Assembly (NCBI GenBank): GCA_033549025.1
Contig: JAWSUS010000002.1
Span: forward strand, 250,539 to 314,538
DNA length: 64,000 bases
Reading direction: 5' to 3'
From: Desulfuromonadales bacterium
Lineage (GTDB): Bacteria > Desulfobacterota > Desulfuromonadia > Desulfuromonadales > SZUA-540
Below the pieces are notes generated by a model. It did not search any database, was not told the DNA's origin, and was given only the letters and a program-made list of their open reading frames with translations. A program made the translations under genes and the position numbers. Positions 25,887 through 60,178 of the stretch are shown here, piece after piece. The first letter of the stretch is position 1. Each line of letters begins with the position of its first letter.

Positions 25887-27245
25887 ATGACGACCTTCAT
25901 CAAACCCAACCTGGAGCAGAGCATCGACTCTCGACAGGATCTCGTCGCCTACCTTTCCCGCGGTGCCAAGCCGCGGGAGAGCTGGGGCATCGGCGCCGAA
26001 ATGGAAAAACTGGTGGTCGACGCCGAAACGGGCCAGGCCGCTTCCTATGACCGTATCAGGGCCCTGCTTGAATCGCTGCTGGCTGACGGCTCCTGGGTCG
26101 GCATTTACGAAGGTCCCCATCTCATCGCCCTGAAAGACGCCTCCTCCTCGGTGACCCTGGAGCCAGGCGGCCAGCTGGAACTCTCCGGCGCCCTCTGTGC
26201 GGACATCCATTGCTGCCAGCAGGGATTTTCCCGTCATATCGACGGCATCATCGGCGCCGGACGCACCCTCGGGCTGCGTTTTCTCGGTCTGGGCGTACAG
26301 CCCTTCAGTCGCCTGGAAGAGATCGGCTGGGTTCCCAAGGCCCGCTACGATATCATGGGGCCCTACATGCAGCGCACGGGCGACATGGGGCCGCGCATGA
26401 TGAAGCAGAGCGCCGGCCTGCAGGTCAACCTCGACTACAGCAGTGAGGCGGACTGTTTCCGCAAACTGCGTCTGGCCTTTCAGCTCTCCCCGCTCTTCTA
26501 CGCCCTCTTCGCCAATTCCCCCCTTATGGACGGCAGGCCCAGCGGCTTCCTCTCCACCCGGGGCGAAATCTGGGCGCGCACCGATGCCGACCGCAGCGGC
26601 CTGGTCCCCCGCCTGCTCCTGCCGGGAGCCACCTTCGAGGACTACGCCGACTACGCCCTCGAGGTACCGATGTATTTCATCATTCGCGATGGGAAGTATG
26701 TCGATTTCACCCGGGAGCGCTTCAGCTTTCGTCGTTATCTCGAGGAAGGCTTCGGTCTCCATCGTGCCACCCTGGGCGACTGGGATCTGCATCTCTCCAC
26801 CCTCTTTCCCGAGGCGCGCCTGCGCCCGCAAATCGAGATCCGCACCGCCGACAGCCTTCCTTCCCGGACGACCCTGGCGGTGGCCGCCCTGGTCAAAGGG
26901 CTCTTTTACGATGACCAGGCCTTCGCTGACAGCCAGGCCCTCTTCGACAGGGTGGATTTCGACACCCTTACCTCTGCCTACCGCCAGTCCTGGCGTCTCG
27001 GGCTGCAGACCCCCTTCGGCGCCGGCACCCTGCAGACCCTGGCCCGCGACATTCTGGCTATTGCCCGCGACAGCCTACAGCGACAAAAAGCTCTTGATGA
27101 AAGCGGTCAGGATGAAACCCTCTACCTGCGGGAAATCGACGAAATCGCCCTTACGGGCAAAACCCTGGCCGAGCGCCTGCTCGCGCGCTGGCAGGGCTCT
27201 CCTGCCGACAAGCTGCACGCCCTCTATGACCATTGCGGCTTCTGA
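25887..27245 (+). CDS. gshA: Glutamate-cysteine ligase (GCS2/plant-type)
   Basis: GIGAEMEK, VTLEPGGQLELSG, PKARY, QVNLD, HLSTLFPEARL, IEIRTAD. Confidence 0.85.
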   Translation: MTTFIKPNLEQSIDSRQDLVAYLSRGAKPRESWGIGAEMEKLVVDAETGQAASYDRIRALLESLLADGSWVGIYEGPHLIALKDASSSVTLEPGGQLELSGALCADIHCCQQGFSRHIDGIIGAGRTLGLRFLGLGVQPFSRLEEIGWVPKARYDIMGPYMQRTGDMGPRMMKQSAGLQVNLDYSSEADCFRKLRLAFQLSPLFYALFANSPLMDGRPSGFLSTRGEIWARTDADRSGLVPRLLLPGATFEDYADYALEVPMYFIIRDGKYVDFTRERFSFRRYLEEGFGLHRATLGDWDLHLSTLFPEARLRPQIEIRTADSLPSRTTLAVAALVKGLFYDDQAFADSQALFDRVDFDTLTSAYRQSWRLGLQTPFGAGTLQTLARDILAIARDSLQRQKALDESGQDETLYLREIDEIALTGKTLAERLLARWQGSPADKLHALYDHCGF

Positions 27246-27350
27246 CCCGGCCGCCCGACTGTCCAAGTGCACAGTCCGCTCCTGTTTCCCTGCAAGCCCA
27301 TCTTTACGCATCGACACGTAGGCATCCCTGGTTAGAAGGGATAGAGTCAG

Positions 27351-27472
27351 AACCATCAAAGGCTTGTTGTGGCAGGCGAGCCGGCGATACAAACCTCCTT
27401 TCGTTACCTCTGTTGGTTATCGGGCCGGTCAAAAGGGATGCCTCCCCCACTTGACCGGCCCGAAATCTTTTC
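27351..27472 (+). ncRNA. Putative sRNA copy 1
   Basis: TAGAGT -10, AAACCTCC motif, 13-bp stem with GGGATGCCTCCCCC loop, TCTTTTC tail. Confidence 0.55.
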
Positions 27473-27590
27473 AGCTCCACCTGCGGCGATCGCCCCGACT
27501 GCGCAAAAGCACAGTTCACCAGCGTGGCTTCTTGTCCCAAGGTTTACGCAATGGCACGTGGAAAAGCGTGACGCCACCCGGTATAGTCAT

Positions 27591-27712
27591 AACCATCAAA
27601 GGCTTGTTGTGGCAGGCGAGCTGGCGATACAAACCTCCTTTCGTTATCTCTGTTGGTTATCGGGCCGGTCAAAAGGGATGCCTCCCCCACTTGACCGGCC
27701 CGAAATCTTTTC
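27591..27712 (+). ncRNA. Putative sRNA copy 2
   Basis: TATAGT -10 and the same elements as copy 1. Confidence 0.55.
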
Positions 27713-27831
27713 AGCCGCCCTCGCGGCGCTTCCCCCCCACTGCACAAAAGCACAGTTCAGCTGCGTGGCTCCTTATCCCAAGGTTTACGCAATGGCACGT
27801 GGAAAAGCGTGACGCCACCCGGTATAGTCAT

Positions 27832-27950
27832 AACCATCAAAGGCTTGTTGTGGCAGGCGAGCTGGCGATAACTTCTTCATTGAAAACCTCCCGAACGCTC
27901 AAGGCCGAATGCAGGGATGCCTCCCCCTGAATTCGGCCTTGCGTCTTTTC
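27832..27950 (+). ncRNA. Putative sRNA copy 3 (diverged)
   Basis: Same 5' end and loop, different stem CAAGGCCGAAT/ATTCGGCCTTG, TCTTTTC tail. Confidence 0.55.
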
Positions 27951-27995
27951 AGGCTCTGAAATTTGCGGCCATCCGAGTTTTCGCTGGCAGATCCC

Positions 27996-28024: not shown

Positions 28025-28056
28025 GGAGCAGAACCCGCACCCCGCAAGGAGACGCC

Positions 28057-28325
28057 GTCAATCACCCCTGACTGAAGTCAGAGGCTTGTAACAACAAGTC
28101 TGGATTGACCAGGCACAGCCACCAGCGAGAGGTCGCTGACGGGGCTACGTTGGAAACGAAATAGGCACCTGGAATGCCCTCCCAGTTCCAGGCTCTGCGG
28201 TAGCCGGTTAAAAGACGTTCAGGGTAAAGCGTCAGTGCCGTCTACGTTAAACCGTTTCACAACCTTGCCGAGGGAGACTTTACCGCCGCAAGGCGAGAAA
28301 GCCGGGATAACCCGGTACTTAAAAG
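28057..28325 (+). ncRNA. omegaRNA (HEARO-like) scaffold
   Basis: GTCAA...TTGAC pairing, CTACGTT, CCTGGAATGCCCTCCCAGTTCCAGG hairpin, ACCTTGCCGAGGGAGACTTTACC; directly upstream of iscB. Confidence 0.85.
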
Positions 28326-29691
28326 GTACAACGATGCAGAGAGTCTTTGTACTCGACAATACCAAACAACCCCTTTCCCCTTGCTCGCCGGCACGGGCCA
28401 GAATGCTCCTGCGAAACGGAAAGGCGGCGGTGTATCGCCGCTACCCGTTCACTATTATTTTGAAGCACCGCACCGGCGGGGATGTGCAATCGGTCGAACT
28501 CAAGCTCGATCCGGGCGGCAAGACCACCGGTGTTGCCCTGGTAGGCAACCACGACTCCGCCAATACCGTTCTCTGGTGCGCGGAAGTGCACCACCGAGGC
28601 GCAGCCATCAAAAAAGCCCTCGAAAGCCGTCGGGCGATCCGGCGTTCACGGCGTCATCGCAAGACCCGCTACCGTGCGCCCCGGTTCGATAACCGGACTC
28701 GGCCACAAGGCTGGTTGCCACCGTCACTGCAGTCCAGAGTCAACAACGTCCTGACGCTGGCAAAGCGGCTGCAACGACTCTGCCCGATCACCAGCGTTGC
28801 GGTCGAAACGGTGAGGTTTGATTTGCAGAAAGCCGAGAACCCGGAGATTAGTGGCGTGGAATACCAGCAAGGGACGCTATTTGGTTACGAGGTTCGCGAG
28901 TATCTGTTGGAAAAATGGCAACGGCGTTGTGCTTATTGTGGGGACGAGAATGTGCCGCTGGAGATCGAGCATGTCGTTCCCAGAAGCAAAGGTGGCTCCA
29001 ACCGGATCAGTAATCTTACCCTGTCGTGTCGGGACTGCAACGAACGCAAAGGCAATCGGCCCGTGCAGGAATTTCTGGCTGACTGGCCGGAACAGCTCCA
29101 AAAGATCCTTGGTCAATTAAAGCGACCGCTCAATGATTCCGCTGCCGTCAACGCCACCCGCTACGCCATCGGCCATGCGGTTAAAACGCTGGGGCTACCC
29201 GTCTCTTTCTGGTCTGGCGGTCGGACCAAGTACAACCGCACTGGGCTGCACTATCCCAAGGCCCACTGGATTGACGCGGCATGTGTGGGTGAGTCTGGAG
29301 ATACCGTGCGATTGAAACCCGACCAGGCCCCTTTATCCATCACCGCCACGGGACGGGGCAGCCGTCAGATGTGCCGTATGGATCGCTTCGGCTTCCCCCG
29401 CACCAGCGCCAAGAGTGCTCGCTTCGTGCAGGGGTTTCGCACAGGTGACCAGGTTAAAGCCGTCGTTCCCTCCGGCAAAAGAGCCGGTCTGCACTTGGGC
29501 CGTGTCGCCGTTAGAACCAGCGGCAGATTCAATATCGCGACGGCCTCCGGAACGATCCAGGGCATATCTTACCGGCACTGCCGGATCGTGCATCAGGCTG
29601 ACGGCTACACCTATCAACCAAAGCCTTCCGTCTCACGACGGATCGCAATTCCTCCCCCGGTTGAAACCGGAGGTCTCCTTGTGAGGTTTCT
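28057..29691 (+). mobile_element. Non-autonomous IS200/IS605-superfamily IscB element
   Basis: Subterminal TGAA-loop hairpins CTGAC-TGAA-GTCAG and CCGGT-TGAA-ACCGG; omegaRNA plus iscB; no tnpA; lower GC than the flanks. Confidence 0.88.
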
Positions 29692-29695
29692 ATGA
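28334..29695 (+). CDS. iscB: RNA-guided endonuclease IscB
   Basis: VFVLD...PLSPC (PLMP), DPG RuvC-I, RRxRR bridge helix, VETVRFD RuvC-II, HNH with CxxC pairs, HWIDA RuvC-III. Confidence 0.93.
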
Positions 29696-34668: not shown

Positions 34669-35271
34669 ATGAGTCCGCTGACGCCGAAGCAGAAACAGAT
34701 ATTCGACTACATCCGCAGCCACCTCGACCAGCACGGCTACGCCCCCACCCAACAGGAAATCGCCCGCGCCTTCGGCTTCTCGTCTCTGGGCACGGTGCAG
34801 AACTACCTCAGGCGCCTGGAACGGGACGGCTATCTGGCCCGCGACTGGAACGCCCGCCGCGGCGCCCGCCCCCTGGCCCAGCGGCGCGACAGCTGGGAAC
34901 TCCCTCTCGCCGGCTGGGTGGCCGCCGGCAAGCCCATCGAGGCGGTGGAACAGCAGGAGAGTATTGAGGTGCCCCCAGCCATGCTCGGCCCCGGTGAACA
35001 TTTCGTCCTGCGCGTCAAGGGGGATTCCATGATCGGCGACGGCATCCTCGACGGCGATTACGTCATCGTGCGCAAGCAGACCGAGGCCGTCAGCGGCCAG
35101 ACCGTCGTCGCCCTCATCGACAACGAGGCGACGGTCAAGCGCCTCTACCGCAAGGGAACCGCCATCGAACTGCACCCGGCCAACCCGGCCATGGCTCCCA
35201 TCCCGGTCGACCCCACGGACGATTTTCGCCTCGAAGGGGTGGTGGTCGGCGTCATCCGCCACTGCGCCTGA
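34669..35271 (+). CDS. lexA: SOS repressor LexA
   Basis: wHTH (PTQQEIA), VAAG cleavage site, GDSM, TVK. Confidence 0.93.
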   Translation: MSPLTPKQKQIFDYIRSHLDQHGYAPTQQEIARAFGFSSLGTVQNYLRRLERDGYLARDWNARRGARPLAQRRDSWELPLAGWVAAGKPIEAVEQQESIEVPPAMLGPGEHFVLRVKGDSMIGDGILDGDYVIVRKQTEAVSGQTVVALIDNEATVKRLYRKGTAIELHPANPAMAPIPVDPTDDFRLEGVVVGVIRHCA

Positions 35272-35299
35272 AGACCGGGGCCGACTTCGCCCCGCCAAT

Positions 35300-36484
35300 A
35301 TGTCCCGCGATATCCTGCACCTGCATATTCCCGACTTTGCCGTCGCCGTCGCCCGTGTCATCGACCCGGCGCTGCGGCAACGCCCCGTCGCTCTCGCCCC
35401 CGGCGCCTCGGAGCGCGCCTTGCTGCAATGCGTCTCCGCCGAGGGACGCGCCGAAGGCCTCGCCCCCGGCATGGCCGTCCGGATGGCCAGACGGCTGTGC
35501 CCGCGTCTCATCCTCATCCCGCCCGACCCGGCCGCCCTGTTCCGGGCCGAGGCGGCCCTCTGCCGCCTCGGCGCCGAGGTCTCCCCGCTTATCGAACCGG
35601 AAGTGGCCGGCCGCCTCTACCTCGACATCTCAGGGAGCGGCCGCCTGCTCGGGCCCGGCCGCGATGTCGCTGCCCGTCTGGAAGGGGAAATCGACCGGCA
35701 GCTGCGCCTGAGCGGGGCCGTTGGCCTGGCCGGCAACAAGCTGGTGGCCCGTATCGCCGCCGGCTATCTGGAACGTCCCGGCGTCTGCGACGTCCTGCGC
35801 GGCAGCGAGGCGCCCTTCATCAGCTCCCTGCCCGTCAGTGTTCTGCCCGGCGTGGGACAGGCCCGCGCCACCCTGCTGCTGCGCGAACTCGACCTGCGCC
35901 GCGTGGGGGATTTGGCTGAGCTTTCCCTGGACGAGCTGCGCCTGCTCTTCGGCGGCTTCGCCCCTCTGCTGCGCCAGCGCGCCTGCGGCATCGACCCCTC
36001 GCCGGTGAGCCCGCCGGCCCGGACGCCGGAGATCAGAGAGCAGGCCTTTCTGCCCCAGGCCGACAACAACGACGAAGCCCTGCTCGCCGCTCTCGCCCGT
36101 CTGGTGGAACGCTGCGCCTATCGTCTGCGTCAGCGCGGGCAAGGGGCCGGCGTCCTGGTGCTGACCCTCTATTACGAGGACGGCGTCACCGCCCGCCGCA
36201 GCCGCCGCCTGCCCAACCCTGCCGCCGCCGACAGCGTCCTCATGGAAGCGGCGGAAGCCCTCTTCTACGCCACCAGCCAGCGTCGCGTGCGTCTCAAGGG
36301 GATGCGCCTGGCCTGCCGGGAGCTGGGTACGGCCCGGCAGCTCGACCTTTTCGCGCCGGCCGGCGGAGAGCCTTCACGGCAGGAAAGCACCTTACTGCAG
36401 GCCCTCGACCAGCTGCGCCAGCGCCACGGCGTGGACGTCGTCCGGCGCGGCCGCACACTGCTCGCTCCCCACCTGGAGGGCTGA
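35300..36484 (+). CDS. imuB: ImuB-like inactive Y-family polymerase
   Basis: DinB-like fold with degenerate catalytic acidic motifs (HLHIPDF, EVAGRLYLD); QLDLF clamp motif. Confidence 0.8.
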   Translation: MSRDILHLHIPDFAVAVARVIDPALRQRPVALAPGASERALLQCVSAEGRAEGLAPGMAVRMARRLCPRLILIPPDPAALFRAEAALCRLGAEVSPLIEPEVAGRLYLDISGSGRLLGPGRDVAARLEGEIDRQLRLSGAVGLAGNKLVARIAAGYLERPGVCDVLRGSEAPFISSLPVSVLPGVGQARATLLLRELDLRRVGDLAELSLDELRLLFGGFAPLLRQRACGIDPSPVSPPARTPEIREQAFLPQADNNDEALLAALARLVERCAYRLRQRGQGAGVLVLTLYYEDGVTARRSRRLPNPAAADSVLMEAAEALFYATSQRRVRLKGMRLACRELGTARQLDLFAPAGGEPSRQESTLLQALDQLRQRHGVDVVRRGRTLLAPHLEG

Positions 36485-58598: not shown

Positions 58599-59345
58599 AT
58601 GATTGCCCTGATCGCCGCCGTACCGCTTGAAACCGAGCTGCTGCGCCAGACTCTGTCGCCGTGGGAAGTGCGCCATTGCGCCGGCTACGACCTGTTCCAG
58701 GGCAGTTATGCGGGACGTTCCATCGGCCTGCTGCATTGCGGAGTCGGCAAGGTCAACGCGGCGGCGGCGGCCAAGGCGCTCATCACCGCCTGCACACCAA
58801 GCCTCATCCTCTCTTTTGGCTGCGGCGGTGCCTACCCCAGCGCCGGCCTGCACACGGGCGACCTCGCCCTGGCGACGGCCGAGATCTACGGGGATGAGGG
58901 CGTTTTGATCCCCGACGGTTTTTGCGATATGGAAGCCATCGGCTTTCCCCTGGCCCGACGGGGCGGGGAGGCTTTTTTTAACCGGTTTCCGCTGAAGACC
59001 GGCCTGATCGAGCACGCCGCTCCGCTGCTAACGGCGCTCAGCGACAACAGAAACTGCTGCTTTGCCTCAGGACCGTTCGTGACCGTCTCCACCTGTTCGG
59101 GGACTTTGGCGGCCGGACTGGCCATGGAAGAGCGCACCGGCGGGATCTGCGAAAACATGGAAGGGGCGGCTATCGCCCACGTCTGCCAACTGCATGACAC
59201 CCCTTTTCTGGAGGTGCGGGGCATCTCCAATCTCACCGAAGACCGAGATTTTTCTCGCTGGGATCTGCGTGGAGCTGCCGCCATCGCCCAGCAAGGGGTG
59301 CTGACCCTGCTGGAAAACCGGCCGGAAAGGGCTATCTCCGCATGA
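58599..59345 (+). CDS. mqnB: Futalosine hydrolase
   Basis: GVGKVNAA, GCGGAY, TVSTCSGT, ENMEGAA, RGISN; adjacent to mqnD. Confidence 0.88.
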   Translation: MIALIAAVPLETELLRQTLSPWEVRHCAGYDLFQGSYAGRSIGLLHCGVGKVNAAAAAKALITACTPSLILSFGCGGAYPSAGLHTGDLALATAEIYGDEGVLIPDGFCDMEAIGFPLARRGGEAFFNRFPLKTGLIEHAAPLLTALSDNRNCCFASGPFVTVSTCSGTLAAGLAMEERTGGICENMEGAAIAHVCQLHDTPFLEVRGISNLTEDRDFSRWDLRGAAAIAQQGVLTLLENRPERAISA

Positions 59346-60178
59346 GCCACCGACTGACCCTGGGCTACTCGCCCTGCCCCAACGATACCTTTATCTTTCA
59401 CGCCCTCATTCATGGCCTGATCCCCACGGGCGACCTGCGTTTTCGCGAACGCCTTGAGGATGTGGAGACCCTCAACCGCCTGGCCCTGGAAGGCATCCTC
59501 GACCTGACCAAAATCAGCTACCATGCCTTGGGCCACCTGCGCGAGGACTACGCCCTCTTGCGCAGCGGCGGCGCCCTGGGCCGCGGCTGCGGTCCGCTGG
59601 TGGTGACAACCGGCGCTACCCGCATGGAGGAGCTGAAAGGGAAAAAGATCGCCATCCCCGGCCGCTTGACGACCGCCAATCTCCTGCTGCAGCTTTATGG
59701 CGAAGGGTTCGAGGACGTGCTGATTCTGCCTTTCGACCAGATCATGGCCGCAATCCGGGCGGGGCAGGTCGAAGCCGGGGTGATCATTCACGAATCCCGT
59801 TTCACCTACCAGGCTCACGGTCTGACCCAGGTGGCCGACCTCGGGGTCTGGTGGGAAAAAGAGACCGGCCTGCCCATCCCCCTGGGGGGCATTCTGGCCA
59901 AACGTTCACTGGGCGCCGCCACGATCGCCCGCGTCGAGGCAGCTCTGCGCGACAGCGTGGCCTACGCCCAGAGTCACCCGGAAAGCTCGCGGGCCTACAT
60001 CCGCCAGCACTCCCAGGAGCTGGCCGATGACGTCATTGCCAGCCACATCGCTCTTTACGTCAACCCCTTTTCCCTCGATCTGGGCGAAGAGGGGGTGCGG
60101 GCGGTGGAAACCCTACTGCAGCGGGCGGAGGAGCGGGGCATCATCCCGGCCAGCCGACAGCCTCTCTTTGTGACCTGA
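59342..60178 (+). CDS. mqnD: 1,4-dihydroxy-6-naphthoate synthase
   Basis: GYSPCPNDTF, DVETLN, GGALGRGCGP, IHESRF, HIALYVN. Confidence 0.93.
   Translation: MSHRLTLGYSPCPNDTFIFHALIHGLIPTGDLRFRERLEDVETLNRLALEGILDLTKISYHALGHLREDYALLRSGGALGRGCGPLVVTTGATRMEELKGKKIAIPGRLTTANLLLQLYGEGFEDVLILPFDQIMAAIRAGQVEAGVIIHESRFTYQAHGLTQVADLGVWWEKETGLPIPLGGILAKRSLGAATIARVEAALRDSVAYAQSHPESSRAYIRQHSQELADDVIASHIALYVNPFSLDLGEEGVRAVETLLQRAEERGIIPASRQPLFVT

Follow-up and report, generated by a model that had tools for sequence, protein, structure and literature searches.

This Desulfuromonadales genome carries a tandem array of three similar units, flanked on one side by a gene of the glutamate-cysteine ligase family and on the other by an IscB/HEARO element, beyond which lies a transketolase gene. 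The array raises the question of what the units encode, what switches them on and which transcripts they might control. Coordinates without a contig label refer to the window, the whole stretch of 64,000 nucleotides that was analysed.

Three predicted small RNA genes in tandem

Motif checks, folding and model searches identified in the array three complete genes of an RNA family of approximately 120 nt, all on the + strand. The features of the three units and of their upstream neighbour are as follows:

25887..27245, + strand: upstream neighbour, glutamate-cysteine ligase family gene (TIGR01436, 405 bits, below the cut-off of 463)
27259..27274, no strand: unit 1 promoter palindrome, probable response-regulator site (family consensus CTGTGC-N4-GCACAG)
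27303..27321, + strand: unit 1 second promoter element, TTTACG-N7-ACGT, separated from the palindrome by 28 nt
27342..27347, + strand: unit 1 -10 hexamer (TA---T columns conserved)
27354..27474, + strand: sRNA gene 1, paralogue type A (97.6 bits with model R1, and fold; predicted 5' end)
27361..27382, + strand: unit 1 hairpin P1, loop GUGGCAG at 27369-27375
27393..27398, + strand: unit 1 linker anti-Shine-Dalgarno (anti-SD) motif ACCUCC, from the sequence
27420..27474, + strand: unit 1 terminator, a hairpin whose loop is GCCUCCCCC, then a U-rich tail (fold and family covariation)
27499..27587, + strand: unit 2 promoter, of the unit 3 type (palindrome 27499-27514; TTTACG..ACGT 27543-27561; -10 27582-27587)
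27594..27714, + strand: sRNA gene 2, putative crossover hybrid of type A body and type B promoter (R1, 94.8 bits)
27601-27622, + strand: unit 2 P1, loop 27609-27615; then ACCUCC 27633-27638 and terminator 27660-27703
27740..27828, + strand: unit 3 promoter (palindrome 27740-27755; TTTACG..ACGT 27784-27802; -10 27823-27828)
27835..27952, + strand: sRNA gene 3, paralogue type B (R1, 104.7 bits)
27842-27863, + strand: unit 3 P1, loop 27850-27856; then anti-SD 27886-27891 and terminator 27900-27941
27872-27880, + strand: unit 3 anti-AUG-AAG-AAG motif CUUCUUCAU, from the sequence

An earlier note on this DNA had proposed a multicopy family of structured, independently promoted RNAs of about 120 nt with anti-SD motifs, and the motif positions that it gave were all recovered: TTTACGCA at 27303, 27543 and 27784; the -10 hexamers TAGAGT (27342) and TATAGT (27582 and 27823), each 39 nt after TTTACGCA; the 31-nt 5' segment at 27351, 27591 and 27832; AAACCTCC at 27391, 27631 and 27884; GGGATGCCTCCCCC at 27435, 27675 and 27914; and TCTTTTCAG at 27466, 27706 and 27944. 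Both terminator stem pairs are present as described there, and RNA starts near 27354, 27594 and 27835 are supported. The units themselves begin further upstream than proposed, at the palindrome (27259, 27499 and 27740). Units 1 and 2 are nearly identical, as reported, across the 125 nt of their RNA bodies, where they differ twice; the resemblance breaks down upstream, with differences at 44 of 92 positions. The terminator stem of unit 3, which had been called unrelated, does differ from that of units 1 and 2, but both stems appear to share a GGCCG/CGGCC core. Beyond the three array sites, the 3.39-Mb genome contains no further occurrence of the 14-nt loop motif or of a 16-nt portion of the 5' segment. 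The covariance model found exactly four genome copies, the three in the array and a fourth, more diverged, on contig C13. Folding z-scores against shuffled sequences were -3.3, -4.5 and -2.6 for units 1, 2 and 3, respectively. The promoter spacer of unit 1 contains, at 27319-27329, a sequence reverse-complementary to 10 nt in the region of the terminator loop; this complementarity is inexact in the congeners G001 and G002 and is probably due to chance.

History of the array and its neighbouring DNA

The array had been interpreted as recently amplified, with one stem completely replaced. This reading is not supported: units 1 and 3 are old paralogues that are already paired in three congeners (G001, G002 and G003), which carry a two-unit array of A then B. 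Upstream of the RNA, only 7 of 101 positions separate unit 2 from unit 3; compared with G001, unit 2 is B-like upstream (5 differences) and A-like in the body (1 difference). Unit 2 is thus best read as a hybrid of the two old paralogues, generated by unequal crossover in their common 5' core. From the two-unit congeners and the hybrid make-up of unit 2, it follows that unit 3 is an old paralogue and not a stem-swapped copy. The private differences of unit 2 argue against its being an assembly copy, and the contigs of public sequencing runs gave no confirmation of the three-unit copy number. The ligase-side position recurs as upstream neighbour at 29 loci, some of which are repeats of one place, and we regard the site downstream of the glutamate-cysteine ligase family gene as the conserved ancestral position of the array.

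On the other side of the array, the IscB gene with its HEARO/omega RNA (28057-29695) is inserted between the Shine-Dalgarno (SD) sequence of the transketolase gene and its ATG. The element is directly followed by ATGAA, which we take to be a common IscB target motif. A contig from the metatranscriptome run X8 joins position 28056 directly to the transketolase start, without the IscB element, so strains that lack the element exist. Further downstream (34669-36484), open reading frame translations point to a lexA-like gene followed by an imuB/dinB-like gene.

An RNA family across the Desulfuromonadales

Searches of related genomes recovered the family well beyond the array. By blastn, relatives were found in 28 of 61 genomes. 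A pattern scan returned 114 stretches, 70 of them with promoter and terminator features; the 44 without promoter and terminator were dropped as chance. Model R1, built on 76 sequences, was positive in 58 of 75 genomes of the same order (Desulfuromonadales), at one to eight copies each, and two further same-order genomes were positive under laxer filters. Outside the order, the model matched 2 of 75 other-order genomes and 2 of 150 genomes of the phylum sample, and all four matches proved on reading to be chance. The weak matches outside the order that were dismissed as chance on reading lie in G139, G155, G063, G309 and G319; the sole viral match is chance as well. Nor did these searches find a family member in a cytochrome-rich sister order. 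Titled records with credible members belonged to Desulfuromonadales, to deltaproteobacteria and to metagenome-assembled genomes that bear the label Geobacteraceae or Thermodesulfobacteriota; the order of the window was deduced from these records and from regulator names. A single contig recorded as Shewanella (L100) also carries a typical family member and is probably mis-binned.

The alignments of homologues revealed covariation. P1 pairs columns 11-17 with 26-32; six of its seven pairs change on both sides and 96% of the cells are paired. A short alternative P1 hairpin was rejected, as none of its pairs changed on both sides. Many of the P1 pairs are G-U, which assigns the RNA to the + strand. 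All 12 stem pairs of the terminator change on both sides among 37 matches, in an alignment that was fitted by the model and thus leans towards the structure. Longer siblings (L056, L065, L069-L071, L202, L206, L223 and others) contain two P1-like hairpins that present GUGGCAG on different stems. The genes downstream of the RNA loci lie on the same strand in 50 cases and on the opposite strand in 38, out of 88 distinct neighbours, and have mixed, unrelated functions. The units hence behave as stand-alone genes, and we rejected a cis-acting leader or riboswitch, which would be expected consistently before same-strand genes of related function. A type I toxin-antitoxin system or small open reading frame was likewise rejected, as no conserved small frame is kept. 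In contigs from the metatranscriptome runs X8, X11 and X20, the promoter and gene parts were covered alike, and no discrete transcript could be made out; the X8 contigs contain two spacer variants. The family very likely consists of genuine sRNAs.

The earlier note recognised no known family, and neither did Rfam, which identified in the window only HEARO and tRNA. Rfam 15 gave 15 sub-threshold matches to the array region at E<=10, mostly miRNA hairpins and none at the gathering threshold; on seven homologous loci (E<=0.5), the only match was a tRNA located elsewhere. The supplement on multicopy sequences of Pelobacter carbinolicus (PMC3543383, file 2) contained none of four family motifs. In the open literature searched, as far as its accessible text goes, there was no description of the family or of a seed directed at the codons of CxxCH or another protein motif. 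We thus describe a new, order-wide sRNA family and its probable regulator.

A shared promoter and a candidate two-component regulator

The promoters of the family have a fixed order: the palindrome CTGTGC-N4-GCACAG, a gap, TTTACG-N7-ACGT and the -10 hexamer, with no good -35. The distance from the palindrome to the second element is 28 nt in 70 of 73 promoters and 27 nt in the other 3. The earlier promoter reading had the -10 right and missed the palindrome and the likely regulator. In four relatives (L054, L060, L063 and L080), the activator-type promoter gives way to a simple TTGACA -35 that precedes an unchanged -10, which supports both the strand and the start of the RNA. Of 185 genomes, 95 matched a promoter-only pattern that was almost never matched in the controls.

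Neighbour clustering of the RNA loci did not reveal a regulator. Apart from those of the RNA genes, the best palindrome of the genome lies before the following operon:

G000:C10:58602-60736: kinase-regulator operon, membrane kinase (HAMP, HisKA_3, HATPase) and NarL-type response regulator, the latter at 58602-59351

Of 30 orthologous loci, 29 have the palindrome in the operon promoter, 27 of them at a distance of 33-35 nt from the ATG; none of 30 control stretches has it. In five genomes, the operon and an RNA gene diverge from a single palindrome that is common to both. The regulator is encoded in 73 of 75 same-order genomes, in 0 of 75 other-order genomes and in 0 of 150 genomes of the phylum sample. 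The same-order exceptions are G012, of family f10, and G072, neither of which gave an RNA, promoter or loop match. Four more f10 genomes are also without the regulator, and family f10 lacks both regulator and RNA. G072, a complete and cytochrome-rich genome, retains a regulator remnant interrupted by stops (L361, G072:C1:2973834-2974130). There is precedent for such an arrangement, since GacA/UvrY, a NarL-family regulator, activates the sibling RNAs RsmY, RsmZ and CsrB through an upstream palindrome. Those RNAs carry many GGA loops that sequester CsrA, whereas GGA is not conserved in the family described here. The palindrome points to the NarL-type two-component system, which co-occurs with the RNA, as the likely regulator of the family; the response regulator would bind the palindrome. 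For the sensor domain of the kinase, we obtained only a four-helix-bundle lead (scores 0.88-0.90).

The start of the operon (G000:C10:60736-60790; L314, L320-L349) has an extended -10, which ends approximately 6 nt before the ATG and at a fixed distance from the palindrome, and no SD. The operon therefore looks leaderless; if so, it would be immune to the anti-SD siblings. Further intergenic palindromes are located at G000:C17:11454, C3:55920, C2:236972, C32:4808, C13:79554 and C25:27812, in contexts that include the inside of a multihaem cytochrome cluster (C17) and positions before a lipoprotein gene, a FeMo-co/rhodanese pair and an RpoH-like gene. They are a possible direct regulon. Two full promoters lead into protein genes instead of RNAs, as identified by eye: one into the gene of an SH3-domain exported protein (L217/L318, G186:C218), the other into a small gene that is followed by genes for cytochrome c maturation of the ResB/ResC type (L256/L319, G176:C22).

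Anti-SD motifs in the linker and terminator loop

The anti-SD motifs proposed for the RNAs recur across the family. A CCUCC-type motif follows within 135 nt of the promoter in 122 of 124 distinct promoter matches, while the adjoining 55 nt contain one in 9 of 122, and the linker reads ACCUCC in 98 of the 124 promoter-anchored copies. The anti-AUG motif UUCAU occurs in 16 of the 100 copies outside family f5 and in none of the 24 f5 copies. In type B, the anti-SD and anti-AUG motifs are both in the unpaired linker. Target ranking gave the anti-SD linkers no preference for cytochrome start regions (p 0.06-0.5). The type B linker leaned to signal-peptide genes (p 0.002), with gene calls and signal-peptide labels taken from our own scripts. 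The genome also encodes Hfq.

The P1 loop matches the codons of the haem-attachment motif

The earlier note missed that the most conserved element of these RNAs is the P1 loop GUGGCAG rather than the CCUCC loop. GUGGCAG reads as GUG (His anticodon), GCA (Cys anticodon) and G. Its complement, CTGCCAC, spells the Cys-His codons of the CxxCH haem-attachment motif. The idea arose after chance model matches proved to be antisense to CxxCH codons (L178 and L180, both rejected as family members, as was L351, antisense to an SD-ATGAAGAAG gene start), and the tests came later. With our own gene calls (3,058 genes), and with 45 multihaem genes set against 2,957 others in the enrichment tests, CTGCCAC ranked 1 of 16,384 and the 8-mer CTGCCACA 1 of 65,536 for enrichment in the multihaem genes. 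Longer complement words ranked lower (9-mers 3-7, then 39 and 994), consistent with a seed the size of the loop. The 7-mer was carried by 34 of the 45 multihaem genes and 133 of the 2,957 others, and two or more times by 23 and 5, respectively. In a test of clumping within genes that used no gene classes, CTGCCAC was joint third of 16,384; the sole words level with it or above were of low complexity, namely Leu-codon repeats and a T run. In eight cytochrome open reading frames from three other genomes, the 7-mer ranked 1 and the 8-mer 15. Predicted pairing reached -10 kcal/mol at 222 of 302 CxxCH sites compared with 92 of 3,000 random sites, and all 45 multihaem genes had at least one site at this energy or better. 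As G at wobble positions pairs with C or U, the G at three wobble positions allows the loop to pair with all four Cys-His dicodons (Y-UGY-CAY). CxxCH codons show no bias to the perfect match (TGCCAC in 112 of 302, about the expectation from genome-wide codon use).

The distribution of the loop bears on the same question. The 7-mer is found in 75 of 100 promoter-anchored copies outside f5, thirteen copies carrying two on separate stems, and in 0 of 24 within f5; the exact 7-mer is missing from the other 25 non-f5 copies. In cytochrome-poor family f5, the CxxCH excess ranges over 45-281 with a median of 159, whereas RNA-positive genomes have a median of 428. The family retains the regulator, promoter, anti-SD linker and terminator; its loop was probably lost in a single event. 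The cytochrome-rich G006, G025 and G098 gave loop-less copies only. Loop-pattern matches in f5 (three), G006 (one) and G025 (two) were rejected as coding-sequence chance; G031 gave a single match. Copy number correlated weakly with CxxCH count (Spearman 0.30 in 60 positive genomes, whose kin are not independent). The loop hexamer has a median unpaired probability of 0.77 (lower quartile 0.49), and part of it is buried in the lowest-energy folds of unit 2 and of the C13 copy. Pairing with the anticodon loop of tRNA-Gly(GCC) was rejected, as that loop is UUGCCAA and not the complement. On balance, these complementarity data make it fairly probable that the P1 loop pairs with Cys-His codons.

Other readings of the loop and the units

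A less likely reading is that the RNAs are ordinary anti-SD siblings driven by the same two-component system, whose P1 loop is a site for a protein such as an RNA chaperone, a nuclease or a sequestered regulator, or a seed for one or two mRNAs, with the Cys-His match arising by chance. Invariant, repeated loops on covarying stems are typical of protein sponges such as CsrB and RsmZ, and the family has invariant loops on covarying stems, doubled in 13 copies; the loop-less siblings in cytochrome-rich genomes and the lack of codon bias on the target side fit this reading as well. Yet a chance match would have a small probability of ranking first of 16,384 in the hallmark gene class of the order and third in a class-free test, and the loop contains no GGA. 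Of 14 start-region matches to the 7-mer, none is an evident shared target, which speaks against a seed for specific mRNAs.

We consider it quite improbable that the loop reads Cys-His codons with a positive or kinetic effect, stabilising the mRNA or slowing ribosomes for export and haem attachment. The complementarity evidence serves this reading equally, and the linkers have no preference for cytochrome starts. Against it are the anti-SD motifs in 122 of 124 copies, which are usually repressive in the systems covered by the accessible parts of two earlier studies (PMC4132741, PMC3091779).

Still harder to sustain is P1 as a mimic of the tRNA-His anticodon arm that would bind, or lure away, HisRS, an anticodon nuclease or an enzyme of tRNA modification. 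The tRNA-His loop of the genome, UUGUGGC, does coincide with alignment columns 17-23, and column 17 is a pyrimidine in 83 and column 18 a U in 82 of 88 loops. But a loop of 7 nt would have to be closed by a pair between columns 16 and 24, and these are G and A; column 17 is itself paired with column 26 in 85 of 88 loops, so that P1 does not form the 5-bp stem and 7-nt loop of an anticodon arm. Moreover, the alternative short hairpin has no changes on both sides, and the mimic leaves the invariant A24-G25 unexplained.

The units are most implausible as DNA-level elements (a mobile repeat, a cis leader or minus-strand small frames with MKK... starts): the minus strand of unit 3 does offer an SD and an ATG that opens a frame of 31 codons, which some homologues retain, and the IscB element is next door, but units 1 and 2 have no such start, the 17 of 35 copies with ATGAAG vary in frame and length, the G-U pairs place the RNA on the + strand, terminal repeats are absent, copy number is low, the ancestral site is fixed and orientation has no link to downstream genes.

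Relation to known sRNA systems

Among described systems, the family invites comparison with LhrC1-5 of Listeria monocytogenes, multicopy siblings that strictly depend on a two-component system (PMC4132741, accessible part). Like LhrC, it combines two stem-loops with C/U-rich anti-SD sites that recur, redundantly, in the linker and in the loop of the terminator, and the genome encodes Hfq. Dependence on one two-component system is suggested by co-distribution, a shared palindrome and linkage, with binding predicted. It differs in belonging to another phylum, in having GUGGCAG in the first loop, where LhrC has the UCCC that it also carries in its other loop and its linker, in its NarL-type regulator with an inverted repeat and in the absence of an Rfam sequence match. 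The csRNAs of streptococci (PMC3091779, likewise from the available portion) are also two-component-driven siblings with redundant C/U-rich sites, and the combination of anti-SD and anti-AUG in an unpaired linker is present in both groups. The csRNA promoters carry the CiaR direct repeat TTTAAG-N5-TTTAAG, whereas those of the family have an inverted repeat plus TTTACG-N7-ACGT and no CiaR direct repeat; nor does the family match the csRNAs in Rfam, and the accessible csRNA text reports no dicodon-like loop (PMC3091779). The family thus belongs to neither group.

Cuckoo/CcsR RNAs, which the earlier note mentioned, share a CCUCC anti-SD motif in loops on variable stems and tandem copies. As described in the text available, they are alphaproteobacterial and have two to four hairpins, each with CCUCCUCCC (PMC4615179). 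The P1 loop of the family is NGUGGCAG, CCUCC-like sequence is found only in the terminator loop and each copy has its own promoter; with different hairpin loops and a range outside the alphaproteobacteria, the family is not part of cuckoo/CcsR. RyhB of Shewanella oneidensis also lowers many c-type cytochrome mRNAs (10 of 41) but, in the part of the paper at hand, is Fur-repressed, single copy as described and active at target 5' ends, and the term 'CXXCH' is absent from that text (PMC5826389).

A model for class-wide control of cytochromes

Combining these observations, we lean towards LhrC/csRNA-like siblings that, under one regulator, repress cytochrome mRNAs picked via their CxxCH codons. 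An extracytoplasmic signal would be relayed by the membrane kinase to the NarL-type regulator, which, once phosphorylated, would bind the palindrome and switch on all siblings as well as its own operon. The ACCUCC linker, the type B CUUCUUCAU and the terminator loop could pair loosely with the SD and start regions of many mRNAs, while the P1 loop, as two tandem anticodons, could pair with every Y-UGY-CAY. A message that combines an SD with numerous CxxCH motifs would then be bound with avidity, far better than other mRNAs. Initiation on the bound cytochrome mRNA would be blocked and the transcript exposed to decay, probably with Hfq. The predicted outcome is a class-wide damping of c-type cytochrome synthesis. 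The broader proposition, an sRNA regulon chosen via the codons of a protein motif, with a wobble loop that covers all CxxCH spellings and control proportional to haem number, we hold to be only slightly better than even.

The family alone provides an order-wide module (kinase, regulator and one to eight siblings) in metal- and sulfur-respiring bacteria that are important for the cycling of iron and sulfur and for electroactive biofilms, and our literature searches turned up no sRNA family described for them. If the Cys-His reading is true, it would represent a new targeting principle, with specificity deep in the coding sequence and a strength of binding that rises with the number of haems. 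Multihaem cytochrome genes are scattered in their dozens and often exchanged, and such a principle would account for their co-regulation in the absence of common promoters; newly acquired c-type cytochrome genes would also come under one two-component system. Such control would offer a direct handle on tuning extracellular electron transfer.
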